Positions 2,601 to 32,792 of a stretch of 64,000 nt of DNA are shown here, in pieces. Position numbers and translations under genes: made by a program. The stretch spans positions 51,797,740-51,861,739 of the forward strand of contig NC_092647.1 of the NCBI RefSeq assembly GCF_039555335.1, read 5' to 3'. The stretch is from Amphiura filiformis (taxonomy: Eukaryota). How positions within the stretch are numbered: the stretch's first letter is position 1; each line of letters starts with the position of its first letter. Below the pieces are notes generated by a model. It searched no databases. It had not been told where the DNA came from and worked only from the letters and a program-made list of their open reading frames with translations.

Positions 2601-2604
2601 TATC

Positions 2605-2880
2605 ATAATCTTTGCATTAGTGATAGCGAAGCTTAATTAAAATTAGTGATAGCGAACCTTATGTATAGCGAACCTTAATTGCAATTAGTGATAGCGAACC
2701 TGGGAGATAGCGAACCTAGATCTTATTTAAAATTAGAGATAGCGAGCCTTATTTAGAATTAGTGATATCGAACCTTAGAACTAGCGAACCTTATTCTGAA
2801 TTAGTGATATCGAACCTTAGAAGTAGCGGACTTTTTTTAGGCATTGCGAACCCTTTTCTCTGTTAGAGATAGCGGGATTT
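2605..2880. repeat. tandem array (~12 units) of ~20-30 bp 'ttagtgatagcgaacctt' repeats at the 3' edge of the LINE fragment
   Basis: direct inspection. Confidence 0.7.
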
Positions 2881-3517
2881 TCATCTCCATAGACCATGTA
2901 GACCTTACCTTGGAGAGGCCTTCACCCTGCAGTGGGTCGACGATGGCTTAGGAGGATGAGGATGATGATGATGATGATGATAAAAATTGGCGAAACAAAT
3001 GATACTCATGGCACCATGTATTGATATAGAATCTCGAGCACGCAGCTGGGCGCAGCACTTATGCATGTTGCTTGTTGTCTAATGCGTGACTGGTCATGCT
3101 GGTGGGCACTTACGTGATTTACGCGAGTGTATGTTTGGACTTAATTGACTCATGCAGCAACAAAACCAAATAATGTTCACCAATTATAAGCCAAACAAGC
3201 TGAAGAAAATTATTTTATTTCAATACATATAAAAATGTATCATTCACCTAATCAATCTTGTCAATAAATACCCTTCATATCGTCATTTCCTGTAAGGTCC
3301 TATGAACTCTTCACCCTTTGTTGCGTACCCAAATGTCCACATTTTACATCTTACAAGCTTCAATTAAGCAAAGCATTGTAACTAATTACCCTAACCCATA
3401 AAAAGCATACATTTTCTCAAAGGAAATTGCGCGAAGAATCCAAATATGCAATTTCAAAAACTGTAGGGTAATATAATGTAAAGCCACCCAAACTGAAAAT
3501 GTCGGCTAAAAATGTAC

Positions 3518-3593
3518 CTGTTCTTTAACAGCAGTCATTTCTTCCTTAACCTGTTGTTCAATCCTGGTCACATGTGTTGAGATCTCCAGAAGC
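3518..3593 (-). CDS. TRPM-like copy A exon 22, coiled coil (LLEISTHVTRIEQQVKEEMTAVKEQ)
   Basis: heptad-like; acceptor ctaatag, donor GTACAT; conserved in copy B. Confidence 0.55.
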
Positions 3594-4006
3594 CTATTAG
3601 AAAGTTCAAAAACAAAACAAGAGCTTTGTAAGACTTGATAGTTGGTATTCTAAGCTCGTCCCACTGAAAAAAAAAAACCATGAGACCAGCTGTGGTCCTG
3701 CAGAGATTTCAAATCAAAAAGTGACTTTACGAAGTCTCAATGATCGGACTGTAATTGCCCATTTGGAACGACCAGGATCAATTTTACATCTCAGGATTTG
3801 CACCTGGTCAGAAGTTTATGGGTGAAGTGACATATCACAAATATTCTAATCACCAGGCCCTAAACCCAGGTTTCAATAAAAAGTAGGTAAATCCATTTTG
3901 AACCAGCAGTGCGAATTCACATCTTCTTCCCTTTCGCCCTCATATAATCTTTGCCCTCTTGCATATTGATTAAAAACGGCTGTCACTTTCCCCGATATTT
4001 ACCAAC

Positions 4007-4136
4007 CTGTTCTCATTGTTTTGCAATTTTCTGGTGGTATTTTCTTGTTCTTTTTGTCTCTTCTTTGTCAAGTAATCTTCTCCTTTAACCGACTCCCATA
4101 TGGCTAACTCATCGATGCTGGTATCGGATTGAGAAG
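4007..4136 (-). CDS. TRPM-like copy A exon 21 (SQSDTSIDELAIWESVKGEDYLTKKRQKEQENTTRKLQNNEN)
   Basis: acceptor ttccattccatacag, donor AG|GTTGGT; acidic then basic linker before the coiled coil; ORF-anchored. Confidence 0.6.
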
Positions 4137-4179
4137 CTGTATGGAATGGAAATGTCAATTTGATAGAAATCAATACGAT

Positions 4180-4560
4180 CTTGGCTCATAACTACCACCT
4201 TCTATACCACAACCAGCTACGCACTGGCTGACCACCTTCTATACCACAACCAGCTACGCACTGGCTGACCACCTTCTATACCACAACCAGCTACTCACTG
4301 GCTGACCACCTTCTATACCACAACCAGCTACTCACTGGCTTGGCTCATGACTACCACCTTCTATATCACAACCATCCACTCACTGGCCTTGCTCATAACT
4401 ACCACCTTTTATACCACAACCAGCCATTCACTGGCTTGGCTCATAACTACCACTATCTATACCACAACCAGCTACTCACTGGCTTGGCTCATAACTACCA
4501 CCTTCTATACCAAAACCAGCCACTCACTGGCCTGGCTCATAACTTCTTCCCCAGGGGTTG
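4180..4560. repeat. minisatellite (~38-51 bp unit x ~8: accaccttctataccacaaccagctac.cactggct)
   Basis: present once in the homologous copy B intron (~31150-31200); it produces the periodic track ORFs 4340..4573 and 4347..4634. Confidence 0.8.
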
Positions 4561-5311
4561 CCATATTGTTTGAAAATCAAGTTTGTCAACCACTTGCAAC
4601 TCTGTGTCAACTAAGCCCTGACAATTTTGAGTAAAAAGCCGTAACAACGTCTGGTACGATGGAATCCATTACTGGCAGATTGGGAGAATGGGGTTGCTCA
4701 CATCTTCAATTCATGGAGAATGAGATTATTTTTGGTATCAGTGGTGTAGCTAAGATTTTCAGGGGCATGGTAAACTTTTTGGGGGGGAGGGGCAACATGG
4801 GATAAAATAATCATTTAAAAAAATCAGCCTGAATCTTGAATAATATTATGGTTAGCATGGGGCCAAGATGTTTGACAGGGGAAAGCTGCATCCCCCGGGT
4901 GCATCCCTGGCTACTCCACTAGCATGACTACAATCAAGGAAAAAAGTCTTGGAACGCTTGCGTGTAAATAACGGAAAACTGTCACCCTCTCTCCCCGTGC
5001 AATGTTGAGAAATGCCAATGTCTTCAGCGGTTCCCCAATGTGTTCCAACATTGCTTGATGGGGAGAGGGGAAGGGTAAATCATTGTTGTAGATGTCATGT
5101 TTCTTCCCAAACACACTATAGATCATTTCCATGAACATAAGAAATTCTGCACGGAATTTCGGCAGAGTGTGCCAAGCGTTCCAAGGACTTTTTTCCTTGA
5201 TTGTAGGTGTTATCATGGTTATACCTTGTTATTTACAAACTATAGCAATCAAATGGGACAACTATAACTTCAACGACCAATGGACTGGAGTCATGTTCCA
5301 TGAGCACTCAC

Positions 5312-5523
5312 CTTTGCACGACAACTTGTCGCAGCCCGTACAGCCGCACTTCTGACACATTTTTCGTAGCTTTTTAAACAGACGTCTTACAAACAGAATG
5401 ATGTGGCTTATGATGATGAATGGTGGTGCTAAAACAGGCCGCTTGTGGTATTCTGTGATAAGTTTGAATCTTTGCCATTTCCAGTGTATGTCTGTTTTTT
5501 CTTGAACAGCAACAAATGTGAAG
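5312..5523 (-). CDS. TRPM-like copy A exon 20, TRP domain ([40 protein letters not shown]...)
   Basis: matches TRPM '[38 protein letters not shown]' (TRP box WKFQR); acceptor gtttcag, donor G|GTGAGT. Confidence 0.75.
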
Positions 5524-5972
5524 CTGAAACGAATGAAATTGTATATTATATCAATTATATAGGCCCCCTACTATATAGTAATTTGTTTGTACAAGAATAT
5601 CTAATCTTTAGGAGAAACGAAATCCTGCACACCTCACTGTTTATCAAAGTAATGGCTCTCGACAGCGGCCCTGTCTCACGCGACTTGCCGCAACTTGCAA
5701 ACTTGTTTAGGGTTAAGGTTAAGATTTAGGGTTAAGATTTAGTATAATGCAGCCCATTATGATTAAAGGTTGCAATAATAAGGTTGGAGCCGGGCGGTCA
5801 ACTGGAACCGGTGGTCGAGTCTTGAAGCCGCCCTAAGTAAATATGCATGCGGCATTGATGTGCCGAAGTCCACTTTTTCAACAATTCACCCCATATAATT
5901 CCTGGCTATCGGCATTGGTCAAACAATAGTGTTTATACGAGGTTGTTTTGTGTAACTGTGGGGTATACCTAC

Positions 5973-6126
5973 TTGAACATGGCAATAAGAAGATTCAACA
6001 GTAGAACATTGCTGAGGAAGAGGTAGATTGACAAGAGAATAGTTCCAAACCATGCATTTTGTTGACACGTTTCTTCTATCGCTGTATGAGTAGCATTCCC
6101 AACCTCTCTCGTATATGTGTAACATT
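5973..6126 (-). CDS. TRPM-like copy A exon 19, pore helix/S6 (..NAWFGTILLSIYLFLSNVLLLNLLIAMF)
   Basis: matches TRPM '[27 protein letters not shown]'; acceptor ggtacag, donor GTAGGT; the frame differs from track ORF 5919..6125 and was calibrated on it. Confidence 0.7.
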
Positions 6127-7338
6127 CTGTACCATCAAGATAAAATTCAACATTGTGTTTCAGTTAAGGGACCAATAGGAATTTACAATTTTCAGGCTAC
6201 ATGACTCCATCACATTAATCGCTCAAATATTTCTTCCACCCTGATTTTGCAAGTATTGTAGTAAAATGGTTTTTGACCCCCTTATTTTAAACTAAACCCC
6301 TGAAATAAAGAAAGTCCGCAGTCATGTAACCCGTCCTACACCAAAACCTGATCTTGTTATGACAATGTGATTGATAAGGTCGTACAATGTATGCAAAATC
6401 TTGTTAGCTCCAATTTGATACCAAATTTGCTACCAAACACTCTAAATTGACAAAGATTGATACCAATATATGGACGTTGGTGCATTTTCAAAAGTTGCAA
6501 ATCAAAATGATGCACGCAGTCGAAATTGCTAAACGTTGTCAATTGATTATCCCAAGTGGCGATGCAAGCGCGGTTTATTCAATTGTTAATTTGAAATGCA
6601 TATGGATGAATGATGAGAATAAAGGTTTCGCACATCGAAAGGAACAGTGCTGGAAAGCAACTTGTTGTGATAACAGAGAAAACCAGTTAAAAAGTCCAGA
6701 ATAAAGTTTAAACAGCCTTACCCATGCTAACCAAATTAAAACCATAATACCCGCGCTCTAGAACTGTTTTAACTTTTAACTGGGTATTAAGAAGTTGCTT
6801 TTTATCATTTAAGTCAGCATGGTACATACAAAAAACACTTAAAAAGATTCGTGGAAGCATGTTTTCAGATTTTAATAAAACAGTTAAAAACATAAAACCG
6901 ACTCTGCTCATTTAAAAGATTTTTTTAAAGAGAAGCAAAAATGTGTTCTGCTGGTTTGTATCTGTCTGTAAAAATGGTTCAACTCAATATCCTGCATGGC
7001 CACCATTGGTGTTTACCATATCCACACAGCGGCGCCTCATTCTCATTTCTTTTCCATGCGTTTCCAATTAACAATTGAATAAACCGCGCATTGTACAGGC
7101 ACTTGGCTAGCTTGACCACGCTTTTCGACCGCGTGCATCGTTTTGATTTGCACCAACCTTCATTTACATTTGGTAGCAAATTTGTTATCAAATTGGAGCT
7201 AACAAGATTCTGCACACGACATTATCAATAAAATTGTCATAACCAGATCAGGTTTTGGTGTAGGACGGGTTACATAATTGAGGGGTTTACGCCATATAAT
7301 TATACAGGTATTATACAGATTATTGTCCACTGGCCTAC

Positions 7339-7513
7339 CTTCGCCATTGGCTTCCAACAGCTCCCCAAAGATTTGCAAATACGGTCGAAAAAAGATGCTT
7401 TCTAACACGTTGGACACACCAGATCTTCCTGGGTATAATATAGCTTCACTAGCTACACCATAGCACGTTAAGAACACGAGTAAGATACTGACGAACACTA
7501 GCAGATCTGCAAA
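7339..7513 (-). CDS. TRPM-like copy A exon 18, S5 (FADLLVFVSILLVFLTCYGVASEAILYPGRSG...IFGELLEANGE)
   Basis: matches TRPM '[36 protein letters not shown]'; acceptor ttattttag, donor G|GTAGGC; ORF-anchored. Confidence 0.7.
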
Positions 7514-9201
7514 CTAAAATAATGGATATTAATCGATAAAATGAAAAAAGAACCTAGATATCATTAACTTCACCCCCCATTTGCCTTCAGTTCGAAACAC
7601 TAGAAAATCGTGAAATACCTCACCATACACCAAAGCAACAGTATTGTAGGGGACCCTGGGAGAAAGTAGAACGCGGGACAAAACGAAACACCCCACATAC
7701 AAGTTATGTATTATGCTGCCCTTATCACTAGAACTACCACCACCCCTAAGATTTTTTTATCCGTCACAAAAAACGCACGCGTTTACGCCCAAACGACCTA
7801 ACTCACCTAAGCTAATCGTAGATCCATCATTTGCACTCATTTTAGTCATAAAATGTTTACCCCATATCTTACCAGACCAGGGGGTAGAACCGGCCGTCAA
7901 AGATGACCATAGAGGGGAGGTGTGAGGCCCACAATTGGTTTCTTTCTACAATAAAATCAATGATTTTCATTTCCCTCCTGTGAAATTATTCTAAGCGCTA
8001 CTGACTTTTTACTTCCTTTTATTGAGGGAAAAATTCGGTGAAAATCGCATTTTTGTAGAATTTTTAGCCGAAAATCAATGTTTGCTTATACTCTTGTCTT
8101 GTACATAGCCAGAATTTTCCAAATTTGCATGGTCGCCATCACATTATGACCTCATAGCGGTATTATGTAGGGCATATTTGTACTTATTTTGGTTTCAGTG
8201 GATAGAGGAGACCCATGGCTATACATTGATACCAAATATAACGGAATATGACGTTTATAATTGAAAATTATGGGGGTTGCAATAACTCCCTCCCCTTCGT
8301 ATTCCGTGTTACAAAATATGGCTCAGTAGTTCTAGGGTTAATCTCCAAGCTCATGTATTTAGAACACAGCATGGATCCAGCGTTGTTTGTGTAGGGGGCG
8401 TTCGAGTGAATCACATGTGTGCTTTTTACAGGAAACGTCTGTTTTTCATATGACAAAACTATGATTTTTTAGAAATATTGTGCTTTTGCTGAATTACTTC
8501 AATAGCCATATTAATGACAGATATGGGCTTTAAAGCCTACTCTGCATGGTAACAGGGCCATACATTAGCGTAACATGATAGGGACGCATGTCTAGAGAAT
8601 TCTCACGTTGTCGGGTGAAAGTGGATGGGCAATGTGGGCAAATAGTCTAAAGTGGATGGGGCAATATGGAACGCCGAAAACAGATCCCACTAAGAACTAT
8701 GAAATATGTATCCGGCCATAGTATACAGGGCATACCCTAAGTTGTGTTGACAATGAAGACACACTTCAAGGGAATGCCTTTCTAAAATGCTCCTTTGCAC
8801 GTTTCACTTTCCCCCGGCTCGATAACATTTTTGTTTTTTGTTTTTTTGTTTTTGTTTTTTAAGCTTTGTTGATGTCATTTGTTAGTTGCAGTCTATAAGG
8901 TAAGAATATCAACCAAAGCTTTTACCTTCCCGTGTTTTGTAATCCTGTTATGTCGGAACAAAAAAAAGTTTCGGTCCACTTCGCCCCGGGTTCTGATACT
9001 GCTTTTTTTTATGTATAGGCCTACATTTATGAAATCAACATGTTTCAATTATTTTATTTAAAATCCACCCTACTACTACATGGTGAATTCTGGTGCTGTA
9101 TAATTTAGTTTCAAATTAGCAGCTAATCATGAATATTAATTATCATTTACACATATTATATGCCTACACATGGAAGGGTAAAAAGTCTACAATTCACTGA
9201 C

Positions 9202-9347
9202 CATTCCTTCAATCATGACAAGTTTAGGGCCTAGATGTTTGTTGGCGGAAAAGACGTGTAGCAGCCGGATGTAAAAGATAACCAAGCTTAATGCCAACAA
9301 GATACGACCTTCTGACATGGTATCTGGAAAGCACCGTAACACGTAGC
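9202..9347 (-). CDS. TRPM-like copy A exon 17, S4 (..GRILLALSLVIFYIRLLHVFSANKHLGPKLVMIEGM)
   Basis: matches TRPM '[36 protein letters not shown]'; acceptor cactatag, donor GTCAGT. Confidence 0.7.
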
Positions 9348-10682
9348 CTATAGTGAGGATAAAATATGAATGAATTTGAATTTAGTGATCATAAAATATT
9401 TTTGAAAAGAAGAAGTATGTACGTTTTGTCTCAAACCGCTTGCCATGACTGTGGATTTATTACCAAGGTACTATTTGAGAAAAAAATGTCCAAATATTAT
9501 GATTTTCAAATAAAACAAGTTAAATTGCATAACACATTGAATTTTTGAAATTACCCATGCTTATACTCTGACATCTTGGCTACAAAATAAAGGTTATTTG
9601 ATTAAAATGTGATTTTTGGATGTTAAGATGTTTTGATAAAAGCGAACACAGACGACTTAGTACGTCGGAAACGGTCTGAATAGAAAGGCCAATTTTGATT
9701 TAAAAGGTAGGTCACATCTATGTGGAAATCATTACACATTTATTTCTGAAAATGATTAAATTGCTTTATTTTTGTTCAAATAAGTTAATCAATATCTAAT
9801 GCTTGCAGATAGTACAGTTTTACTGGGTACCATGTCTTTTGCAAAACAAAACCGATACATGTTCAGAATAGCCTTCATATTGACCCTTTCCATAGGTTGT
9901 TGACTTCGAGCACTTGTTGGTTCAAGTCGTCCTGATTGGTTCATAATATACTATCAAATAAGTCGTATGGACATTTTGTTGTATTTTGTAAGTATATACT
10001 GGGTTATTAAACAAATCTGATTTCCACGTCAAGATGCATCCATTGTTTAAAATAAGGACGTAATTACAAATTACCCTTAAACATGGTCTAGTTGAAATCC
10101 GGTATATTTCACTAACCCTGTCTGTTGAACCCTTTATGTTAATGTTTTATTCTCATTTAAAACGTGTTTTCTTTTGTATTGAAGTCCCAAGGCATGTCAG
10201 GGAGCTTAAATAGGAACAAAATATTTATCTGAGTAAGCAGTTTGGACAACTGCATCATAAAAACATTTTATGGAGATTATCCAAAGCTACAATATGATGC
10301 TTTAATACTACACTTTTGCTTCAGTTTTTAACCGTTTCCGACGTACCAAACACTAACATATATATACAACCAAACATCACATCTTCATTAAAGAACTTTT
10401 ATTAGAGTAAGATATAAGAGTATAATCATGAGTAATTTCAACTTCCTGGCGCGTAAGGTACAGAGATGTGATGATGGAGGTAGAACTTTTTGAATGACCC
10501 TAGTAATTCCCTTGTAACGCCACTGCTCGAAAGTTTAAGCCAAAATTGATGTTTATATAATTATTAAGTTTTTGTATTTTATTGAGTTTATAATTAACCT
10601 AGACCTAAATAGCGAATGTGTTATATCTTTCATATTATCTTTATTTGTTACTGCATTCTATCGTGAACATTAATGAACGTAC

Positions 10683-10785
10683 CTGTTATAAATACGACGA
10701 TTTTACAAATGTCAACCTTGTTCCAAAAGTAATGAATCCAGATGCTAAGACGATACAAGAATGTAGGACCTACCTCCCACAGTAC
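10683..10785 (-). CDS. TRPM-like copy A exon 16, S3 (VLWEVGPTFLYRLSIWIHYFWNKVDICKIVVFIT)
   Basis: ~ TRPM '[27 protein letters not shown]'; acceptor ccttgcag, donor GTACGT; calibrated on the overlapping plus-strand ORF. Confidence 0.65.
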
Positions 10786-11313
10786 CTGCAAGGAAAACAT
10801 CATCGGATAATTCTACCCATTATCATCAGATTATTGTTCTTATTGTCCTCCTCCTCCTCCTCCTCCTCCCCATCATCATCATCACTATGGTGAAATTTCA
10901 TCATCATCAACACTATGATGGGATATCATCATCATCACTACGGTCACTCGAGTCAGTAAAAATGGTAAAGTAAAATCAAATTTTGAGATTTTCACAAAAA
11001 CTGTTAATTTTTATGGAATCTGTTATAAGCTAGTTAAATCCTTGCATCATTTCAATTCTGAAAATGTATACTTTTATATACTTCTCATTATTACATTTAG
11101 AGATACAATAAAAAAAAAAACCAATATTTAAATTACTAACTCGCAAAAGGTATACAGACTATATGGTGTGATATCATCATTATCATCACCACCAAATTTA
11201 ATGTATTTGAAACAAAGTCTATTTGCCAGTGACACCCTGTAAACGGTAAGACTACGTTAGTACCTATGTAATAAGAAAACGTCCAGCTCATACGCTTACA
11301 CTACATGGCCTAC

Positions 11314-11445
11314 CTGTCGGATCAGTTCTATACACAGTGTAAAAAACCAAGCAAGAAGAACGTATTCTATCTCAGATGGGTACTTGCTCTCAAAGCCTTG
11401 TAGAAGAATATAACTGAAAAGTCCCAGAAATACTAGCTTGGAAAA
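11314..11445 (-). CDS. TRPM-like copy A exon 15, S2 (FSKLVFLGLFSYILLQGFESKYPSEIEYVLLAWFFTLCIELIRQ)
   Basis: ~ TRPM '[32 protein letters not shown]'; acceptor aattgcag, donor GTAGGC. Confidence 0.65.
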
Positions 11446-12028
11446 CTGCAATTTAGGGAAGAGGTCGGTTTTATTAAGCTTTCATAAAATAGTTTTAAAA
11501 TAATCAGAATAGTAATAATAATAAATAGTATTCATGGTGTATCAAAATAAAGTATAGCGTTTGAAAAATGCCACTCCCACCAGATTAAAGAGTATTAGGT
11601 ATTTGGTAAAAAATAATTTTGTTGATAGCTGAATCAACATCTTGCATGTCCTCCCACAACTGTAAAATCACTCTCGTGTGACAATTAATAGGGACTCAGT
11701 GGCTTTTTTTGTGAGCCGTGTAAAAATGCAGTTGCGCGAAGTTAATTAGAATAACATGAAAATCACAGTTTCACCATTTCCTTTTCAGTAATTGAAAACA
11801 CCTTGCATAATTGTTTGGCAATCATGTGATTGCTCTAAAGCACCAAGTGGAAGAAGTCTTTTAACTTTCCGATGGGTGATCACTGCTACGCGACGCATGT
11901 ATTCTTGGGAGAAATCGTCATAGGTAGTACGCGCATATCAATTAGCTCAGATACTAGAATCAGCCCATCAGATCGCCAAAATTATTATAGCTATATAAGA
12001 ATGTAATAAGCTGAAATAGAAAACCTAC

Positions 12029-12167
12029 CACATTGTAGAGAAAAATGACATTTGGGACAAAGAAAAACGAAGAGACACGACGTCGTAGCGATGCTCGTGG
12101 CTTTTCATTATCATGCTCGGCAAACCAGATCCGCTTTTGGCGATTCATTTCACTAAGTGGCAACCCT
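12029..12167 (-). CDS. TRPM-like copy A exon 14, S1 (..NRQKRIWFAEHDNEKPRASLRRRVSSFFFVPNVIFLYNV)
   Basis: ~ TRPM '[24 protein letters not shown]'; donor GTAGGT; acceptor ctatgtatag gives phase 2 but exon 13 ends in phase 0, so the 5' boundary is unresolved (alternative phase-0 start near 12133). Confidence 0.55.
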
Positions 12168-13710
12168 CTATACATAGGTCAACATAAAGTACACAATAAT
12201 TAGTAATCTTGGTACTTTAATTGGGAATGATGCAACGGAAAATTCTGTGAAAGTAGAGAACCAAAACGATCTCCATCCCTCTTTCACAGAATCTTGATTT
12301 TATATCGATTTCGAATTGCGCTATCCTTGCACTGGAACAGTATATATTTGATCAAACTAAATTTATTACGTAGAGATGACTCTTGCAAGGTATTACACAA
12401 AACATCTCACAGATACACTGTCAATGATGAGACGAAATGCTCTTCCAATGATAAATCACAACAAGTTATGATATCAATATTATGATGTTTGCAGTTAGAG
12501 CTATAGCTTTGTGATGAACTTGATGAAGTGAAATTAAACTATTACTCAAAGCGGAAAATGAGCTCACCTGAGAGCTTTCGAACTTGTGATGAACTTGTTA
12601 ATTTAGATTCTTGTATAAGTTGATATTTACATAAACTTGATTTCGTTTTACATGTATTCACATCTTTGATTCGGGACTTTCGGTACATTTATCGTGATTA
12701 CTGTAAAGGACCACTACAAACCGAGGAACAAGCAATTAGAGCAAACAACCTACGTGAAGTTTGGACTACTGGTTTCGCCATCCGTTTCATCACTTCGATG
12801 TGGTAGTCCAGGGAGGAGCGATAGTACACTACGACGTATGGAGAAAGTAGGCCTACGCATCAATTGAGGTCTGCGGAGCTTAATATCGCCCCTATGTCGC
12901 CCACGAGGTAGCCTCTATCGTTGAGAATAAAGAACAATCAAACCATGAGCCTTATAGGTTAAATACCACTAATAGGCCTGGGCGATACATTGAAATTGAT
13001 CAAGTTATATAGCCAAAAAGTACTTTTTAGAGTTTGATGCTTCAAAATGGTACATTTTCTCTCATTATATGACATTTTTGTTGTAATAGTACCAAAATTC
13101 ATACGCACGGCTTCGGTTTTTAGTAAATATTATCATATTGTAACTTTCAGCTTCGAGGGCGCACTGTCATTTTAAGGTGTTTACGGTTCAGTGCGTTAAA
13201 ACAAGAAAAGTCGTTGAATTGTGATCATTTGGCATCTGAATCATATAGTTTCACCTGATATTAGTGGCATTGAACTGTGAGAGTTCTGAATATGAGAAAA
13301 TTCCATCCGAAATTAGGCATTTTCCCATTGAAACCCGTGTAATACATAATTAGTGGTATTTAACCTATAAGTAGATTATACCAGGAGCATAGCGAAATTA
13401 AGATTGCATTCAACAGTTTCTATTTTCATTTCCCGAAAGTGGAATCTGTTCAAACTGTTGACTTGATTTTAGAAGGACTGGCCCAGGACTGTTATAGATT
13501 TCTGGGCACCTGCAACTCAAAGACGATTATTTGACTTGTTGTTGTTCCAGCTGCATAATAAGCCCATATAATAATCGTTATTAAATTATAAATTATTTCG
13601 GAATAAGGATTTTGGGAAATCAACATTTACCTATTAATAGCTAGTACTAGTTTAACGACAGTGAAAGTGGAAATCTTTTAAATCTTGAAAAGAAATTTAT
13701 TTGCATTTAC

Positions 13711-13797
13711 CTTAACGACAAGGGGATCGACTTCTTCTTCCTTCATCTTCAAACGTATGCAAAGCAGTGCAGGCGGGAATACCAGACATATCCATAT
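13711..13797 (-). CDS. TRPM-like copy A exon 13, pre-S1 (IWICLVFPPALLCIRLKMKEEEVDPLVVK)
   Basis: aligns gap-free to TRPM '[28 protein letters not shown]' after ..RWK; acceptor ttcaaag, donor GTAAAT; 98% nt identity to copy B versus ~87% intron background; the plus-strand ORF here is its antisense. Confidence 0.6.
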
Positions 13798-14015
13798 CTT
13801 TGAATGAATATAATTAATAAAAATGAGAAATAGGAATTAGCTCTTTTATATAGACTGTGATAGTGTAGGAGCCTACTGCAACAAGAATTGAGAAGACAGG
13901 TTTCAAAGTATAACACTTTAAATCTCAATTTGATTCTACGTTATCCAAAACAGGAATGCGAGTCAACGTTTTCTTTATTCGATTTATCGAGATGCTTTTT
14001 TTTAAATCTGCGAAC

Positions 14016-14241
14016 CTTCCACCTCGGGTTTGATACAGACAAGTTCCCCATCCAGAACTCCTTCAGCATATTCTGTACGGCAGGATGAGCAACGAATTCC
14101 ATGTTGTGAGCAGTGTTTGCCAGATCCAGACAGATAGCCGAGCCCCAAGTATGTAAAACTCGAACTAATGTCAGTGTTGTCAGTTTTCTGTCACTTGTGT
14201 AGTATTCTGATAACACCTCTACGGCAAGCTTGTCAAATAAC
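14016..14241 (-). CDS. TRPM-like copy A exon 12 (LAVEVLSEYYTSDRKL...FVAHPAVQNMLKEFWMGNLSVSNPRWK)
   Basis: matches TRPM '[37 protein letters not shown]'; acceptor atcaacag; weak donor AAG|GTTCGC conserved in copy B. Confidence 0.6.
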
Positions 14242-14634
14242 CTGTTGATAAGCCGAAATATGTTTGATGAAGTCAAGCATATGTAGGAGCATGGTGTTAT
14301 AGGTAAGAAATGTTCCAGGCTAAAATCACCTTTTTAAAGTTCACGCAATTCCGCAATTATCCATTTAGTTCTTTGTTCATATCAATTATGGATTATTAAA
14401 CTTTTTCATCAGGGTTGAAGGTATATGTTTTTGAAGGTAGTGGGGTAGTGGGCACAGGTTGTGATCACGTATTGATACAACCTTGATATCAATTCACAAA
14501 TGCAACGTGATTTCAACACCGAAATTAAAACATTGTTTCAATGTTGACACAACATCAATGTGGCCGCTGGGTATGTGACGTTATTTATTTTAGATCCAGG
14601 GTGTCTACCTTAGAGTGTAGACTGTTTTTCATAC

Positions 14635-14890
14635 CTTCCTCCTTCTTCGTATCTTGTCAACCTTCTAGTTTCATGCAAATCAGTCTCTCTTGCAGCCATC
14701 TCCTTGAGTAGCTTACTAGCAACTAGAGCACCTCCAATAGGTGCCTTGCTCTTCTGCCAGAATAAGATCGCCATCTCTAGACGTCCTTGAAGTACTGCCC
14801 AGATGAAGAGTTCACGAGACGGATTGGAGAATCTATCCACGTCATCTGCCGAAGAGATCATAATGAAAAATATTTGTGAGTTTAGTTCAC
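14635..14890 (-). CDS. TRPM-like copy A exon 11 (..SRELFIWAVLQGRLEMAILFW...ALVASKLLKEMA..)
   Basis: matches TRPM '[33 protein letters not shown]'; acceptor cacag, donor AG|GTATGA; ORF-anchored. Confidence 0.7.
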
Positions 14891-15827
14891 CTGTGCTTGA
14901 AATTCGTGTAAAGATGCGAGAAAGTATTCGGTTGACTTATTGATGTTGATAGTCTCGATTATATATATTTACGATACTCACAGGAATATGTCGCATCATT
15001 CTGTGGATGTGCATTTATAAAGATCATGGTGATTATAACTCGGAACGAGCGAAGATTCAGGAGCTCGTACTCTTGTACCGTGAGCCTTTTTATTTTTCCT
15101 GCACTGATGCACATTTGTTCTGGTTGACATGCTTGGAGAGGTTAAAGTTAGGCAAACCAATTTGCGGAAACATTCGATCCGAGATTCTATCCTGCGACTA
15201 CCAGCCACCCATTCAACCCTAACCTTCCCTAATCCAACAAAATCAAACAGGACAAAGCCACTGCGCATGTATGCATCCCGGGTGATGCGATGACGAAATC
15301 ACCCTACATCTATTACACGTACGGTTGTTGGTCAGCGAAAGACCCGTGGCAACCGACTCATGACTAACGTGCTTGGCGCGCAGTGTGTCCGGGGTTCAAA
15401 TCCCGAAGGAAACAAGCAACTTCTTTGTTGATCTTCTCTCTTTTTCCTTCCTTCTTACTTTTCCGTTGGCCAAAAAGCACGGGCGTTAGAGATAACAATA
15501 CTTTGGGCAGTCAGTTGTGCCCTATATGAGCGCTATGATTGAAGGTGTGCGTCCAACACGTTGTCATTCCATGACGTTGTGTTTTCTACCTCACATTAAT
15601 AATTGAGGACCAACAGTTTACACTAACATTAAAAATTTTTTTGATCAAACATATTCCAGCCTTAAAATTGTACAGGGGTTATGATCAAAATATGAGCTTT
15701 CACAGTGGATATCCAAAATCTGCATCCAAAAATGGGGAATGAGATTGTCTATCTAGATAAGCATCTTTAATTTACTTAGGGAGCAATATCACCCCATTTA
15801 CTCCCAAAGCATACAGTAGATTTATAC

Positions 15828-15924
15828 CTGTGAATGTCTCTTGTAGGTAGAGAGGCTTAAAACTCCACACTGTCAAATCATTGATCACGTTGCCAACGTC
15901 CTTCAAAACCACACTAGTTTGGAC
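15828..15924 (-). CDS. TRPM-like copy A exon 10 (VQTSVVLKDVGNVINDLTVWSFKPLYLQETFT)
   Basis: acceptor cattgcag, donor GTATAA; ~ TRPM 'NDALLTFVWKLVANFRRG'; ORF-anchored. Confidence 0.6.
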
Positions 15925-16181
15925 CTGCAATGGGATACGGGACAAAATAGAATAATGCGAGACAAAATAAAGTGCATCAATCAAATTTCAAATATATATG
16001 TTTACATGAGCTCGAAGTTCAGGATTTAATGTAAGGCCTTGAGAATGGCTTTTTTGAAAATAGTTTGAAAAATCCAAAACGGGCTGAAAATTAAAATACT
16101 TAAATTTGGACAATAAAACAGCCTGAAATCGGTCTACAGCCTTAAAATTCTCATGTCTGAATTGTATCATAATTTACTAAC

Positions 16182-16250
16182 CGAATTGCGATCGGGGTAT
16201 CTTTCCAACTCTTCTGAAAGTAACTCGTATAACATGGAATCAGATTTCAC
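16182..16250 (-). CDS. TRPM-like copy A exon 9 (VKSDSMLYELLSEELERYPDRNS)
   Basis: acceptor ttttgcag, donor GTTAGT; ~ TRPM 'VLTELFSNHFSTLVYRNLQ'; conserved in copy B. Confidence 0.55.
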
Positions 16251-16623
16251 CTGCAAAATAATAGTAAAACAGTTACCAATGACATGGTTTTACAAGTCGA
16301 TTTAACTTCTGCCTTACACTTAGAACGTCGTCGGTATGACATACAATGGCCTACAATGAACCGTCACCCTTCAAGACGGCCGCACATGGCTTTTCATATC
16401 ATGTTGCAAGTACATACGTATGCAATGACGGAAAAGAAAAAGTATGATGAGAATGTTATGTCAGGGACAACTTCGTTTGAATCTGAAAGTTGCGAAGAGA
16501 GCTCATAGTACTCGGTCACTTAATGACGGCTTATACGTTTGTTTACTTACAATACAATACTTAAGAACTTAATTTGTTTTACTATCTTGTGGTTAATTTC
16601 AATGTATGAGTGAAGTACCTTAC

Positions 16624-16759
16624 CGTTCTGTACAAGCAAATAAGTTCCTGTTCTGTCAAGTACTCATAAAAGACTGATTCCTTTGTTGAGAAACAGTTTA
16701 ACAAACTCTACCTGGTCTTTAACGAGGGCTAATCGTAATGATTGGCGGACTTCTGTTAC
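16624..16759 (-). CDS. TRPM-like copy A exon 8 - FRAMESHIFTED (VTEVRQSLRLALVKDQVEFVRLFLNKGIS|...)
   Basis: copy B homolog is 135 nt and reads ..LFLNKGISLYEYLTEQELICLYRT (TRPM 'KFVRLFLENGLNL'); copy A has T4 instead of T3 near 16668-16671, giving an immediate in-frame TGA; boundaries +/-1. Confidence 0.6.
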
Positions 16760-17312
16760 CTAATAAAACACGTAAAGAGGCTATATTCAAAATGTGTTCA
16801 AGGAACAGGTGCGTTAGGGGTTTGCAATAAATATATACTTATATGAGCCCTGGTGGGAGGGTAACATGGAGGCGAGCCGGAAGGAGGGCCAGCAATTTTT
16901 GGCACACATTCATGGGGCGCTTTTAAATAAAACGCTCTAAAAGGTCTTAGCAGAACAGTACTGAAACGCTTATATATGCATATTGTGCTGCTTGTTGCGC
17001 TCGCAATGTGTATCTAGACCATGAAAGGTTTGCAAAATGGGATGTGCAAAGGGGAGGGGGCAAAGATTTTTTTGTTTTGGCAGGCCAAGGGAGACAAGCG
17101 ATTTTTGGCAGGCCGAGAGGGGGCAAGCATTATATGGCACACCATATGGAAATTGTACCCCCGGCTCATAATTATTGCACAGCCCCTTTTACATGCAATG
17201 AATTAGATCCTATAATCATAAATATTTAACAAGTTTTAACCGATCATTATAACGGCTTTCAAACGTCTGAAACATGCCGGGAAACTAACAATATACTAGT
17301 ATATGACCATAC

Positions 17313-17431
17313 CTTGAGAGTCTTCTCCTTCTGCAGCAATCGTTGAGCTAGATCAATTCGGTTCAGTACGGTTGCAAGATGGAGCTGATCTGAATTCTGA
17401 CCGGAGGTATGTAATTTGCCATGATTCTTAG
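17313..17431 (-). CDS. TRPM-like copy A exon 7 (AKNHGKLHTSGQNSDQLHLATVLNRIDLAQRLLQKEKTLK)
   Basis: ~ TRPM '[26 protein letters not shown]'; acceptor aaaag|CT, donor GTATGG; ORF-anchored. Confidence 0.65.
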
Positions 17432-17520
17432 CTTTTATTTGAAACGAAACAAAATAATAACCGTTCATCATCGAATTTTCATAGTATAGGTTACTAGAAC
17501 AAACAGGAAACGGCAAAATT

Positions 17521-17555
17521 ATTCATCATCCAACATCATCATCATCACCATCATT

Positions 17556-17623
<68 letters not shown>

Positions 17624-17635
17624 TGTCATCATTTT
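17521..17635. repeat. (CAT/ATG)n microsatellite in copy A intron 6, starting ~25 nt after the exon 6 donor
   Basis: track ORF 17519..17734 (poly-Met) is this repeat. Confidence 0.9.
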
Positions 17636-17661
17636 CAGCACTATCATCTTTATAACCATAC

Positions 17662-17879
17662 CTTTCAATAATGCTGTCAAAATATTCTCCTCAAGGTTAG
17701 TGCCACTGTCCGTATTGTCATCATCCTCGTTCAATGATAAGACTGTAACCAGAGATTTCCTTTTTGCTATCTCGCGGCACCATTTGGTAAGCTCTATGTG
17801 ACTGGATTTGATTTTCTCGGTATCAAATGCGGAACTCAGTTGAGCTTTAAACTCATTGGCTATTTCTATGGAAAGGCTT
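17662..17879 (-). CDS. TRPM-like copy A exon 6
   Basis: ...KIKSSHIELTKWCREIA..NLEENILTALLK ~ TRPM 'ESWIKWLKEIL..EIVSNAISYALYK'; acceptor atttag, donor GTATGG; ORF-anchored. Confidence 0.65.
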
Positions 17880-18848
17880 CTAAATAATAGACATTGAAAT
17901 AGAGGTATAGTGAAATATTAGTTTAAATCTCATTAGATTGAACATCATAGTATATAATATAATTTTTGGTGTTATTCCAGAAAAAATATATAACAGTTAC
18001 TGTCCTCTACCCTGAGCTACCCCATTGCGTATACTTCGTGAACATTATCCTCATAATATACTAGGTCGATGCAAGGTTTAACATTGTATATAAGTTATAT
18101 ACTTAACTCTACCAGTTTGCCGTCATGTTTGAGACAAGGGAGGGCACTTCAATATGAAATGGATATAGGTGTAGGGCTGGCACTTTCACAGTAAGGTATT
18201 CGGTGAGAGCAACATATAAAATATATAGGGTCATTGGGTAAGAGTATGATTTTTGGCATTCGATGAGAGCAAAATGTAAGACCTGAAAGTAAAGCGTTGA
18301 TGGTTATGGATAGGCTAGTATTTAGGTTTAGATTTCCATCCATGGACGAAATGTTTGAATGTGTACGTGAGCCGTCAATCGTCATTTAATTAAGTATGCG
18401 GATTGGTCACACGCAGGAAAGTAACGCCATGCGTAAATAGACCAAAATGCAGGGCAGTCATCTCTCTCTTACATCGCTCTTACGCCAAGGTAGCTCAAGG
18501 TTAATTCTCACGCGAAGGAAGCAAATCTCACGCCATGAGCTGCCAAAGTATTAAAATCTCACGCATCGTCAAAACATTACGTGAAAATAGCCAATAATAG
18601 TGTAAAAATGGAGCACCAAATGGCTTCATTTGCACTTTCATTTGGGAAAATTTTCACGGCTACTGTAAAGCTGGGGCACATCCTTCAGATACCCCCTCGT
18701 CGCGCAAGCGCAATGGCTGCATGGTGATGACGCGCCGAATGCAAATTTTTAATAAATCATTTTAGGCAATATCTCACGCCAAGCAATCCCTAAAAGTTGA
18801 CATCCCTGGAAAATGTTATCTTGTCGATAGTTTAAGCCGTGTGCTTAC

Positions 18849-19026
18849 CCGCTCTTGTTTACGTCTTTCATACCGAGTTTACGACAAGCAAATGCTAAAA
18901 CATTAGCGGCACCTCCCGAACCGTCTAGAATAATCACTGGGATCTTATTCACTACCACAGTCTCATGAATGGATTTGATTCGCCTATGACCACCTCCAAC
19001 TACAATGCAGACTACAGGTACTCCAC
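18849..19026 (-). CDS. TRPM-like copy A exon 5 (GVPVVCIVVGGG...IPVIILDGSGGAANVLAFA)
   Basis: matches TRPM 'IPIVCFAQGGG..IPCVVVEGSGQIADVIASL'; acceptor tttcaag, donor GTAAGC; ORF-anchored. Confidence 0.7.
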
Positions 19027-19656
19027 CTTGAAATATGGCATAAGAAACAGACGTAGCCTTTGTGAGTACTTGACAGAACAGGAACTTAATTGCTGAATGT
19101 ACAGTGGACAATAATATAATGCAAGAGCACCAACAGCATGATAGCGACTACTGTGTGACCTCTGGTGTTCCTCTTTGAAATTTGACATGTTTCCCTCATA
19201 TATTGAGGATTCTTTCTACCAGGTGTAAGCCCCATTGGGTAAACATTTAACGTTTGACCTCCATAACCCATGTTAAGTTCATTGCTTAAACCAAGTTTAA
19301 ACCCAATCGGACATAGAGCAAAATTTGAACCCGCCATGATCTTAGAGCAGACAAAATTGTTCAAAATACATTATCATAACATTTAACCTCGTTTAGCCCA
19401 ACATGTCAAAAAGTGATTTTTGTGTAAGTTGGTGATCTCTAGGGCTGTTCACTCTCGCTGACAATAGCTAAAAGAATTTTGGTCGCAACATATCGGGATG
19501 AGTAACAAATTTTGGCATATTATTTAAGGAGATTTGTACACTCAAGGTTAAAAGTGAATTGATTATTAATCTAGGTTGAATGGAGAAACTAAGGCTAAAG
19601 TTAAATGATATTGGGTACAGGAGAAGAAAGAATGACTTACTGAGTGACCAACTTAC

Positions 19657-19828
19657 TTCTGGTATAACTTTCCATTCTTTTGACAGCGATCGTTTTTAGG
19701 AACTTGTTCTCTGCTTCAATCTTCACTCTCGTATGATCTGATCCGTCGTCATTGATTAACAAATAATGAGTATGATTCGGATCTAAATGTTGGCTCCCCA
19801 GCTCGTTTGGATCAATCGTAATCGATAT
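19657..19828 (-). CDS. TRPM-like copy A exon 4 (DPNHTHYLLINDDG...)
   Basis: matches TRPM 'LDNNHTHLLLVDNG...EKYISERT'; acceptor ttttatag, donor GTAAGT; boundaries +/-1. Confidence 0.6.
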
Positions 19829-20834
19829 CTATAAAAACAACCATTCATTTTGTTTTGACTTTCTTTTTGTCACCTTTGAAACCAATTATTTTGCTTGTTT
19901 GGTATCATAAACCAAGGAAATATAATAGATTGTATTTGTAACGCATTGTTTCTTTGTGCCGATTTGATTTGCCGACAAGCTATTCATCAAGTGGTACCTT
20001 TTGTTCATGACGTAAGCAAAACGCCCAGCCAGACACAAGTTACCCAATTTTAAAAATTGTATGTTGAATGTTGAATATGTCAGCGCTCAAACCAGACACA
20101 ATAGATGAACAGATGCTGCTGCAGTCCGTTGTCATACACTGACACAAATGATGGCAAGACTCTTATGAGCAACATTTTGTCACAACATTATGATCATGTA
20201 TAAGTTGATTTAAAATCACTTTGTTTTATCATTCCGTTATTGAAAGTGTCTGGTTTATTATGTTGGGGAAGGAATGTTGCAAAAGGGTATAGGGACAAAA
20301 TTGATAGAATTGTGAATGAAGCTGGACGGATTATAGGTGTGTCACGGCGGGATTTCGAAGCTGTTTATCATGTTTATGCTGATCTGGTGAGTAAGACTGG
20401 TGTGATAGATGACTCTGGTCATGCACTTCACGATCGTTTCTCATGTCAGTTGATTCCCAAATCTGGTCGGTTGCACTTGACCAACCGGTATCTTTCCTCC
20501 TTCCTTCGTTCCACAAGCTATTAGATTCTAACTACACATGGGGCGCCGTTCTTTAATAGTAACATGTAATTGACAGAGCTTCCTCTTTTATACTGTGTTT
20601 TGATATTTTGTGGTAATTATTATGTGTATTGTATACATATTTAACTTATTCTGTATGAGCACTCATGAGGGAAATTTCCCTTGTGGATCTAATAAAGTAT
20701 GACTTGAATATTAAAATAATCAAATAAATGACACCATTACGCTGTGCTCCTGTCTTCATGTCCTGTCCTGTTGACATGTTTGATATACTATACCGATCTA
20801 CCATTACATCGTGATATTGAAAAAAGAAACTTAC

Positions 20835-21010
20835 CTCATTCGTTGCCTTTTTGAGTTCCTCTTTCTCTTTTAAGACTGATATTGGCATAATACCAATAGC
20901 AACCACCTTTCTGTTCTGGGCCATTGCTCTTCCAATGGCGTAGTCTCGTAAAGATTCGCCAACATCTTTAGTCATACCAGAGTAAAGCCCTCCTGTAGTA
21001 AGCCATGCTC
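20835..21010 (-). CDS. TRPM-like copy A exon 3 (AWLTTGGLYSGMTKDVGESLRD...VVAIGI)
   Basis: matches TRPM '[29 protein letters not shown]'; acceptor caatag, donor GTAAGT; ORF-anchored. Confidence 0.7.
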
Positions 21011-21304
21011 CTATTGTAATGCATGATCGATATTGTTTGTAAAAATGTAAGGCCCAGATATCATGGTTTTTATGATCTTCCCGATGAACAAATCACTGAA
21101 TGGGCCTTAGGCCAAGATACATGGGAAGTACATAGGCAATGTTAAGAAAGCCCGTTCATGTAGTAGCAAGAATTCTAGGAGGGAAGACTCAAAAGACCAG
21201 TACATATTACAGCAGTTTTGCTTGCCAGAGCTGGAGATAAAACAATAATTATTGGAAAATACCATTTGCAAAAGAAGATGCAAAAAAAAAATTCATCATC
21301 ATAC

Positions 21305-21488
21305 CTGTACTCAATACCGCATTTGCTAAGTCCCGTAAGAATGTCTTTTTGACAGCCGATGATACGTGTTTGATCCCTCGATATCCACCGACAAGAGATA
21401 TTACAAGTTTCGGTTCGCCCAGTTGCCATTGTTTAGTCAGATATTGAGCTGTTTGAAATATGTCGTTGTCTTCGTCAACAATCACAAA
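21305..21488 (-). CDS. TRPM-like copy A exon 2 (MHR: FVIVDEDND...KLVISLVGG)
   Basis: acceptor tgtggcag; matches TRPM '[32 protein letters not shown]'; donor cag|GTATGA; phase 0->1. Confidence 0.7.
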
Positions 21489-21540
21489 CTGCCACAAAAG
21501 TTCAATGTTTTGATCAGTGCAAAATAAAATTAAACACTAA

Positions 21541-21702
<162 letters not shown>

Positions 21703-22418
21703 GGAGCGATATAGGAGGAGACCAGGCCGGAGGAGGAGAGGAAGACGATGAGACGAGGAAGAATGCAGCCGGGCAAAAGGAAGGTCATCTAGGGAAGATT
21801 TAAACATGTGCAAGGTATGACTAGTTGAGATATATTGCGATTTCTTACGTGCTTGTTTACGGCTGCTAGAATGACAGTGGGTTCAATTGAAAATCAGTTA
21901 TTGTTGAGCTATTTTAATTACCGTTCGTTTTGAAGTAATCGTAGACGCAATCATAATCGGCAAGTGCCGGTATAGATTTGCTTAAAGCCATATTGTAACA
22001 TTTCCATAAAAAAGTAGATTAATATTTCTTTTCAATAAAACGTTAGCTTTTACTGTCAGATATGTCCCCCATTAATTTTGAGCCGAACAACTGAGCTAAA
22101 GCAAAGACAATTGGAACTTACTACCAGCGCCGATGGTGCCAGTGCATGTCACGCAATCGGTTGTGTTACGGCACGATCCTTTGATGCGTACCCCCCACAA
22201 TATGTACGTACTGTGACTCTGTGTTATGAATATCGTGTACGCGCGCGTTCCACTAATGTTTCCATCGTAATAATTAAACGACGGTTACTGCGTTTTATTC
22301 AAAATCTCGGATTTTGACAAAACTACGGAGTTTTGATTTTGGGAGGGTATGTTAGTTTAATAAATCCTCCTCAACAAATATTAAAATATGGCTTTATTGT
22401 AAATGTGTAGATACTTAC

Positions 22419-22604
22419 TTCTCTTCTTCTATAATAGTTCGATAACCGATTATTTTTTGATATCTGGTTTTTGAATATGATGGTACCATGGAGAAGCCCA
22501 TTGGCAATTACAGATTGTTCAGGGTTACCGTCCTGTTCATCAGACGCCATTGCGGATGCCATCGTGTTCTGTTCCTCTGTAGATGCTGTCTGTTCTTCCG
22601 CCAT
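22419..22604 (-). CDS. TRPM-like channel copy A, exon 1 (ATG; MAEEQ... N-terminus)
   Basis: ATG at 22604 and the following 62 codons are conserved with copy B; donor GTAAGT; joins in phase 0 to exon 2. Confidence 0.6.
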
Positions 22605-29383: not shown

Positions 29384-29530
29384 TCATTGCAAATCTTCCT
29401 CCTCAACATTGCTCTCTGTAGATAGCTGGCTCTGTCGAGTCATGTTCGCTACATTGCTCTCTCTAGATGGCTGGCTTTGTTGATGTAGTTGACTCATGGT
29501 TGCTACTAAGAGTGACTGCATAGTCTTCAG
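29384..29530 (-). CDS. TRPM-like copy B terminal exon (48 aa + stop; internal ~57-nt duplication relative to copy A)
   Basis: acceptor ttttgcag; LKTMQSLLVATMSQLHQQSQPSRESNVANMTRQSQLSTESNVEEEDLQ*. Confidence 0.55.
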   Translation of the reverse strand: MKTMQSLLVATMSQLHQQSQPSRESNVANMTRQSQLSTESNVEEEDLQ

Positions 29531-30416
29531 CTGCAAAACAATGAAATATTTGGTCTTACTATTTGTTATTGTCAAGACAGCAACATATCCAACAATTATT
29601 ATTTTAACCAGTTCTACATTTTTATTTTATAATTGGGCAATTAACTTTTTTTGTTCAAAAACATTTTTTTCTTAGTAGATTCCATGGATAAATCCATAGT
29701 CCAGACATACACAAAATACACAAGCCTGCCCGGTAAACACCAAAATGTTCTTTAAACTTTTAACATTCAATGTCATGTTATATAAAGATCATGAATACAT
29801 TTTTTAAATGTTATTGTAAAAATTTTGGGCAAACATTTTTGCAAAATATTTTGTCAACAGTTAATAACATTCTGTTAGAATGTTTTGCATCACAGTTTCA
29901 AAAAGTTTCAAATATTCACAGCAGTGTAAAGAAAAAGACAATTTTTAACACTTGAAATAATGAGTCTAAGATATATGTGATGCGATCAAGCAAAATCAGT
30001 CGGAACTCGGAAATATTGATTTTGAGATATAGCCAATTAATAAAGGAATTATTTCCTTTTGTTTCCTGTTGTTTTGGAAACTCTTTAATTACTCATATCT
30101 TTGGAACTGGTTGTTCAATTTGAATAGGGTTTTCTGCAAAATGCAGCTTTGTAAACGTTTTTTACTTTCATAATAAGAAACTGAAAATTTATTATTTCCG
30201 AGTTCCGACTGATTTTGCTTGATCGCATCACATATGAATCGGAAGGCATTATTTCCTATGAACTCTCCATCCTTTGTGTTGCGTGCCCAAATTGTCACAT
30301 TTTAAGCCTTTGCGAGCTTAACTCATACTAAGTATACATTTTCTGCACGGAAATTGCATAAGAATCTTCCAATTGTTTCTCTCAAGTCATAACAGTCACA
30401 TCATCATTTCCTGTAC

Positions 30417-30492
30417 CTGTTCTTTAACAGCAGTCATTTCTTCCTTAACCTGTTGTTCAATTCTAGTCACATGTGTTGAGATCTCCAGAAGC
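30417..30492 (-). CDS. TRPM-like copy B exon 22, coiled coil
   Basis: LLEISTHVTRIEQQVKEEMTAVKEQ; calibrated on the antisense plus-strand ORF. Confidence 0.55.
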
Positions 30493-30979
30493 CTATTAGA
30501 AAGTTCAAAAACAAAACAAGAACTTTGTAAGACTTGGGAGTGCTGGATAGTTGGTATTCTAAGCTCGTCCAAACAAAAACATGAGACCAGCTGCGGTCCT
30601 GCAGGGATTTCAAATCAAAAAGTGACTTTACGAAGCCTCAAAGATCGGATTGTAATTGCCCATTTTGAACGACCAAGCACCCAGGATTTGCACCTAGGCA
30701 GAGGTTTATGGGTGAAGTGACATATCACACACATTTTGAGCACCAGGCCCTAAACCTAGGTTTCAATAAACATTAGGTACATCCATGTTTGACCAGCAGG
30801 GTGAATTCACATTTTGTTCCCTTTACTTTGCTGGAAAAACCAAAGGGTGAAACTTGGTTCAATGCATTATCATATGCGGTGAATCCAAACAAATATTTGC
30901 AAAGGCGAATCTATGACTAATCTTTGCTCTCTTGTAAATTGATTAAAACCGACTGTCACTTTCCTCCACATTTACCTAC

Positions 30980-31109
30980 CTGTTCTCATTGTTTTGCAGT
31001 TTTCTGCTGGTGTTTTCTTGTTCTTTTTGTCTCTTCTTTGCCAAGTAATCTTCTCCTTTAACCGACTCCCATATGGCTAACTCATCGATGCTGGTATCGG
31101 ATTGAGAAG
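30980..31109 (-). CDS. TRPM-like copy B exon 21
   Basis: ORF-anchored; donor AG|GTAGGT. Confidence 0.6.
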
Positions 31110-31443
31110 CTGTATGAAATGGAAATGTCCATTTCATAGAAATCAATAAATAATGTCCTCCATTAATACTGCTTTCTGCACTACTTCTGTACCACAACCA
31201 GCCACTTTTTTGAAAGTCAAGTTTGTCAACCACTTGCATCTCCGTGCCAAGAAAGACCTGACATACATTACCAAGCCGTGACAACGTCTGGAACGCACGA
31301 ATACATTACTGGCAGATTGGCGGACGGGGTTGCTCATGGAGCTTAAATCTTCAAATTCATTCAGAATCAGATTACTTTTGGTATCAGTGGTGTAGCTAGG
31401 ATCGTTTCAAGGGGGCATGGTGATCTTGGGAGGGGGCACTCAC

Positions 31444-31655
31444 CTTTGCACGAGAACTTGTCGCAGCCCGTACAGCCGCACTTCTGACACATTTTTCGTA
31501 GCTTGTTAAACAGACCTATTACAAGCAGAATGATGTGGCTTATGATGATGAATGGTGGTGCTAAAACAGGTCTCTTGTGGTATTCTGTGATCAGTTTGAA
31601 TCTTTGCCATTTCCAGTGTATGTCTGTTTTTTCTTGAACAGCAACAAATGTGAAG
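31444..31655 (-). CDS. TRPM-like copy B exon 20, TRP domain
   Basis: [70 protein letters not shown]; donor GTGAGT. Confidence 0.75.
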
Positions 31656-32177
31656 CTGAAACAACAGCAGAAAGAAATTGGATATTTGTATCAAATATAC
31701 ACTATATAGTAATTTGTTTGTACAATAATATCTAATCTGCAGAAGAACCAAATTCCTGCACACGTCTCTGTTTAACACAGTGATATCTTGGAGCTCCCCG
31801 GTCAGTAATGGCTCTTGACAGCCCTGCCTCACGCAAGAGCGCTGAGCGGCACATAATCTCTTTTGCAACCAACTTGCAAACTTGTTAGGGTTAAGATTTA
31901 GTATTATGCAACACATTATGATTAAAGGTTGTAATAATAAGGCTGGAGCCGGTTTCTATTGTCCTAAAAAGGCAATGGAACACGGTTTAACCAGCGCTTA
32001 ACCGGAACCGGTGGTCGAGTCTTGAAGCCGCCCTAAGTTAATATTCGTGCGGCATTGATGTGCCGAAGTCCACTTTTTCAACAATTCACCCCAAATAATT
32101 CCTGGTTACAGGCACTGGCCAAACAATAATGTTTATATGATTTAAGATTTTTTTGTGTATCTGAGGGATATACATAC

Positions 32178-32331
32178 TTGAACATGGCAATAAGAAGATT
32201 CAACAGTAGAACATTGCTGAGGAAGAGGTAGATTGACAAGAGAATGGTTCCAAACCATGCATTTTGTTGACACGTCTCTTCTATCCCTGTATGAGTAGCA
32301 TTCCCAACCTCTCTCGTATATGTGTAACATT
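32178..32331 (-). CDS. TRPM-like copy B exon 19, pore/S6
   Basis: ..NAWFGTILLSIYLFLSNVLLLNLLIAMF; donor GTATGT. Confidence 0.7.
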
Positions 32332-32566
32332 CTGTACCATCAAGATAAAATTCAACATTGTATTTCAGTTAAGGGACCAATAGGAAGTCACAATTTCCAG
32401 GCTTCCCAGAGTAGATCTTATGTTAAATGTTGGTTTGTATGGGGGTTGGAATGGTATGTGTAAAACCTTTCGTGCAAAATCCTGGGAAAATTGAAAAAAA
32501 TTAATCAGGATTAATTCAGGATCATGTATACAGGTATTATACAGGGCATATTGTCCACTAGCTTAC

Positions 32567-32741: not shown

Positions 32742-32745
32742 CTAA

Positions 32746-32792
<47 letters not shown>

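Follow-up and report, generated by a model that had tools for sequence, protein, structure and literature searches.

A one-base frameshift in a tandem TRPM-like channel gene of the brittle star Amphiura filiformis and its possible origin as an assembly error

Two tandem TRPM-like channel genes were found on the minus strand of contig NC_092647.1 of the brittle star Amphiura filiformis, and one of them has an extra T in coding exon 8 that breaks the reading frame. We infer that this base is an assembly error rather than a biological change, with a probability of about 0.55. Counted as support for this reading are that the lesion is the only one in the gene, that constraint on the coding sequence is not relaxed, and the method and quality value (QV) of the assembly. 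On this view, the consensus built from Nanopore R9.4.1 reads would have kept an inserted base that polishing with Racon failed to remove. The true gene would encode a channel of 1,191 aa, and the truncated RefSeq models of 244 and 730 aa would be consequences of the error.

Organization and identity of the tandem locus

The window (i.e., the whole stretch of 64,000 nucleotides analyzed) contains a tandem duplication. In a self-comparison, positions 12-22,600 (copy A) match positions 29,400-53,200 (copy B) through short blocks of 88-96% identity, separated by sequence that, where it can be aligned, is 70-80% identical. These conserved blocks are minus-strand exons and form two genes with 24 coding exons each, namely, copy A (12..22604), which has an open reading frame (ORF) of 1,191 aa once one T is removed, and copy B (29384..53092), which has an intact ORF of 1,208 aa. 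The boundaries of exons 1-8 were set from alignments between the two copies, and all boundaries were then carried to copy B by local alignment. GT-AG splice sites are kept in both copies (48/48 exons). After correction by one T, copy A is 92.6% identical to copy B over the 1,191-aa ORF.

Several smaller differences between the copies were observed. In exon 14 (12754-12914 in copy A and 37629-37783 in copy B), the linker that precedes the transmembrane domain is two residues (Arg-Pro) longer in copy A. In exon 24 (29384-29530 in copy B and 12-101 in copy A), copy B has 19 more codons for its C-terminal tail than copy A, and this addition looks as if a QSQ(P/L)S(R/T)ESNV motif had been duplicated internally. 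At the donor site of copy B exon 10 (approximately 46265-46295), a 15-nt tandem duplication doubles the ACAG|GTATG sequence and creates two candidate donors; copy A has one. Intron 6 of both copies (17529-17690 and 48027-48182) contains a long trinucleotide repeat of the GAT/ATC type, which translates as poly-Asp or poly-Met runs and has not changed its position since the duplication.

For the family assignment, the Pfam search identified an LSDAT_euk domain (SLOG/melastatin homology region) at residues 94-358 of copy B (E = 3.7e-48), and exons 2-5 of copy A encode the same region with approximately 91% amino acid identity to copy B. A TRPM2-like domain (PF25508; MHR3/4) was found in copy B (E = 1.4e-46) and in the 730-aa model of copy A (E = 1.4e-31), and the Ion_trans domain is present in both of these proteins. 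The TRP-helix motif WKWQRF can be read in both copies. Copy B can be aligned along almost its whole length with all solved structures of TRPM channels (such as human TRPM2, PDB 6mix; TRPM3, TRPM5, TRPM4, and TRPM8), with similar E values from 1e-141 to 1e-113, and none of the vertebrate subtypes is markedly closer to it than the others. For the channel part, the alignment to the TRPM2 structure spans residues 798-1237, and the protein ends approximately 50 aa beyond the region aligned to the TRPM2 coiled coil. A Pfam search for the ADP-ribose-binding NUDT9-H/NUDIX domain found none in the proteins of this locus, so they are not TRPM2 orthologs in the strict sense. By these domains and alignments, copy B is a genuine TRPM-family channel that has no clear vertebrate ortholog. 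An exhaustive HMMER search of 1.84 billion representative proteins found its nearest relatives, apart from a fragment of copy A itself, at just 34-39% identity. A word-index search for a closer outgroup returned only the three RefSeq models of the same locus as close relatives.

These three RefSeq models have differing names, namely, TRPM5-like, TRPM2-like, and TRPM1-like. Copy B is represented by a single protein of 1,239 aa (XP_072019956.1), which equals the 1,208-aa ORF plus 31 aa upstream and reaches position 53185. Copy A is split into XP_072019958.1 (244 aa) and XP_072019957.1 (730 aa). The former (20649..22604, minus strand) covers exons 1-3 and then reads through into intron 3. The latter, which carries the name TRPM2-like and was returned by a protein search with a rough translation of copy A, starts at an ATG in exon 9 (16233..16235, minus strand), the exon immediately downstream of the frameshift, and maps with 100% identity onto exons 9-24 (12-16235; 16 exons with GT-AG introns). 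Exons 4-8 of copy A are absent from every RefSeq coding sequence (CDS).

The N-terminal extension in the RefSeq model of copy B is probably 5′ UTR. In the corresponding 93 nt (53093-53185 in copy B and 22605-22697 in copy A, minus strand), 12.9% of the bases differ between the copies, compared with 13.4% in introns and 5.0% in exons. Also, 9 of the 31 codons differ, and the first ATG is GTG in copy A. The ATG common to both copies (MAEEQ...) is likely the true start, as judged from this comparison. An in-frame TAA (22614-22616) upstream of the copy A ATG was considered as a possible second lesion and rejected, because the extension behaves as 5′ UTR.

The exon 8 lesion and constraint on copy A

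Coding exon 8 has 136 nt in copy A (16624..16759, minus strand) and 135 nt in copy B (47033..47167, minus strand; within XP_072019956.1), with AG/GT flanks in both. The exon belongs to the TRPM MHR3 region, and its residues in copy B align with human TRPM2 residues of approximately 471-516. The difference in length is due to a run of four T in copy A (16668..16671, minus strand; A4 on the plus strand) where copy B has three (47077-47079). As a result, copy A reads GGA ATC AGT CTT TTA TGA and copy B reads GGA ATC AGC CTT TAT GAG, such that translation of copy A passes through Ser-Leu-Leu to a premature TGA (16664..16666, minus strand) at codon 442 of approximately 1,191. The original prediction of a 1-nt insertion, a frameshift, and an immediate stop was thus borne out in coordinates, sequence, and translation. 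The rest of the exon was said to match copy B in frame and length, and apart from the insertion we found four substitutions only, namely, GTA/GTT, GTA/GTG, AAA/AGA (K/R), and AGT/AGC, one of which alters an amino acid. Bases specific to one paralog flank the T run at positions 16757, 16709, 16698, and 16673. The reported contrast in ORFs also holds, in that no ORF of at least 60 aa covers exon 8 in copy A and the ORF at 47006..47191 is present in copy B.

The further claim that this is the sole frame-breaking difference between the copies agrees with our gene models. The other 23 exons are equal in length, with the exceptions of exon 14 (a 6-nt indel) and exon 24 (57 nt), both of which are in frame. 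Likewise, the downstream exons of copy A had been described as open, and exons 9-24 translate exactly to the RefSeq protein.

Coding constraint was assessed by comparing corrected copy A with copy B (dS 0.122; dN/dS 0.29). This comparison had been named as a check in the original prediction, and dN/dS was found to be well below 1 on both sides, with 0.32 for exons 1-8, which lie upstream of and include the lesion exon (bootstrap 95% interval 0.20-0.53), and 0.27 for the downstream exons 9-24 (0.18-0.41). The two values are alike (Fisher p = 0.66), and neutrality of exons 1-8 is rejected (p = 2e-6). Changes polarized with six outgroups of approximately 35% identity include eight on the A lineage and five on the B lineage upstream, and seven on each lineage downstream; 28 of the 41 upstream differences were left unpolarized, which gives this relative-rate test low power.

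Indels provide a further measure. The aligned introns have 13.4% differences (divergence 0.148) and 25.4 gap openings per kb, and 78% of these gaps have a length that is not divisible by three; exonic indels occur at 0.57 per kb. If the CDS of copy A had been neutral since the duplication, approximately 35 frame-breaking indels would be expected, and one was seen. Moreover, all splice dinucleotides of copy A are kept (46/46), and every exonic indel other than the extra T is in frame. From these patterns in the sequence, copy A is judged to be free of decay and kept under selection as a complete TRPM-like gene.

The lack of a second lesion also limits the age of the frameshift. If the CDS is assumed to have been neutral from the moment the frame broke, the frameshift can have existed for no more than approximately 8.5% of the A lineage since the duplication, or approximately 22% if neutrality is assumed for exons 1-8 only. 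The 8.5% limit corresponds to approximately 0.006 substitutions per site and is less than half of the haplotype divergence of 3.22%, the heterozygosity reported for this genome (PMC11310086). Accordingly, a real lesion would sit within standing variation, and would probably still be segregating as an allele, not fixed as a pseudogene.

Origin of the extra T

The original prediction had offered two readings, a very recent pseudogenization or a homopolymer assembly error, and these are exactly the two that the tests leave. An established pseudogene that has long been decaying is effectively excluded. The stop at codon 442 and the lack of a full-length RefSeq model for copy A would fit such a history, but a single lesion where some 35 frame-breaking indels are expected, dN/dS near 0.3 on both sides of it, intact splice dinucleotides, and in-frame indels elsewhere in the exons all argue against it. 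It is also very improbable that the frameshift is real and bypassed, whether by skipping of exon 8, by a start at the exon 9 ATG that gives a 730-aa channel without SLOG/MHR1-2, or by +1 ribosomal frameshifting at UUA UGA G. Each route has something in its favor. Because both boundaries of exon 8 are in phase 0, its skipping would cost 45 aa without disturbing the frame and leave a product of 1,146 aa; the 730-aa ORF retains the TRPM2-like and ion-transport domains; and the site is akin to +1 shift sites that have a stop codon in the ribosomal A site. Programmed sites of this kind include antizyme (UCC UGA U) and bacterial RF2 (CUU UGA C). Like them, copy A has a stop after a slippery context (CUU UUA UGA G), at which a +1 shift would restore the frame of copy B. 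However, the resemblance is only formal, since the paralog has no conserved site and a stimulatory structure is lacking. In a search for such a structure in the mRNA downstream of the site, the fold z scores were +0.3 to +0.6 against mononucleotide shuffles, which is nothing unusual, and programmed +1 frameshifting was rejected on these two grounds. Bypass in general is opposed by the conservation of the exon 8 segment with human TRPM2 and by the equal constraint on exons 1-8 and exons 9-24, given which neither a truncated product nor another bypass can be a long-standing state. A variant in which the T4 run is real and copy A has only just switched its product, either to the truncated 730-aa protein or to a full-length one made by a +1 shift or exon 8 skipping, seems just as remote; if true, it would represent early functional divergence between tandem channel paralogs.

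A distinctly stronger alternative, which we regard as possible though not our preferred reading, is that the extra T is real and marks a very young copy A allele, with loss of function or N-terminal truncation, on the haplotype kept in the assembly. Such an allele would probably still be polymorphic, and the intact copy B would make the loss tolerable. In highly polymorphic marine invertebrates, tandem duplicates often carry genuine loss-of-function alleles, and the redundancy of tandem duplicates, the narrow age limit given above, and the fact that the lesion stands in the assembly and was left unrepaired by RefSeq all favor this explanation. Copy A resembles known young or segregating alleles of this type in having a single disabling lesion, an intact second copy, and no secondary decay; it differs from them in that the allele is known from the assembly sequence alone. 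On the other side, nothing in the sequence points to lost constraint, an assembly error fits the same data equally well, and, given the measured error rate of the assembly, a stray indel somewhere in a 3.6-kb CDS is no less likely a priori than a real allele. By rough priors that draw partly on background knowledge, such an indel in the CDS of a tandem paralog has a chance of 5-15%, and a sampled haplotype with a real loss-of-function allele 2-8%, which gives a mild preference for the artifact. The history of the assembly is relevant to that preference. Nanopore R9.4.1 reads called with Guppy 2.3.5 were assembled with Flye into a 2.86-Gb diploid assembly, which went through Racon polishing, two rounds with Nanopore reads and two with 10x Illumina reads, before the haplotypes were purged (PMC11310086). 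The Merqury QV is 31.6, or 6.8e-4 errors per base (approximately one per 1,460 bases; PMC11310086). In long-read assemblies, homopolymer length is the commonest residual error, and such errors survive short-read polishing where short-read alignment is unreliable, i.e., in repeated sequence (PMC8812927). Exon 8 was present in four similar versions during polishing (two paralogs in two haplotypes). An error at this site would resemble known Nanopore homopolymer errors that fragment genes, given the 1-nt homopolymer change, the R9.4.1 chemistry and QV of 31.6, the paralogous and heterozygous region, and gene models split at the site. Unlike those cases, the run has only three to four bases and was polished with Illumina reads, and the error here is deduced from sequence. 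Nanopore errors concentrate in longer runs, and two Illumina rounds should mend most isolated 1-nt errors in exons. Furthermore, the rest of the ORF-like sequence in the window, approximately 10 kb made up of the 47 other TRPM exons and a 951-aa ORF of a retrotransposon, is free of frameshifts, which indicates that the local accuracy in exons is above the genome average. These points temper the assembly-error reading, which we nonetheless prefer.

Records outside the assembly were also searched. An exact look-up of ten ORFs in a collection of 15 billion proteins, including the T4-specific 40-aa ORF, the hypothetical T3 version, and intact-exon controls from both copies, returned no match for any of them. 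Because the controls were also unmatched, this collection contains no independent short-contig data for A. filiformis. A look-up of other contigs that encode XP_072019957.1 found nothing on record.

Implications for annotation and other features of the window

The main value of these results concerns annotation quality, in that they draw attention to the fragmentation of copy A in RefSeq. Should the extra T be an error, a full-length TRPM paralog of 1,191 aa is missing from the brittle-star reference, which has two inconsistently named fragments in its place, and tallies of TRPM genes and of pseudogenes in echinoderms would be distorted. Should it be real, one more young loss-of-function allele is added to those known from redundant tandem duplicates. 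Both outcomes are ordinary, and the understanding of TRPM channels or of gene duplication is unchanged either way.

Among the other features of the window, a 951-aa ORF that belongs to a non-LTR retrotransposon and encodes endonuclease and RVT_1 domains was found intact on the plus strand at 41989-44844, antisense within intron 10 of copy B. This insertion accounts for the 5.8-kb length of the intron there, compared with 1.0 kb in copy A. Outside both genes, there are inverted repeats at 58837-62784 (69-79% identical) and 24271-25094 (93% identical), which are probably transposon remnants.
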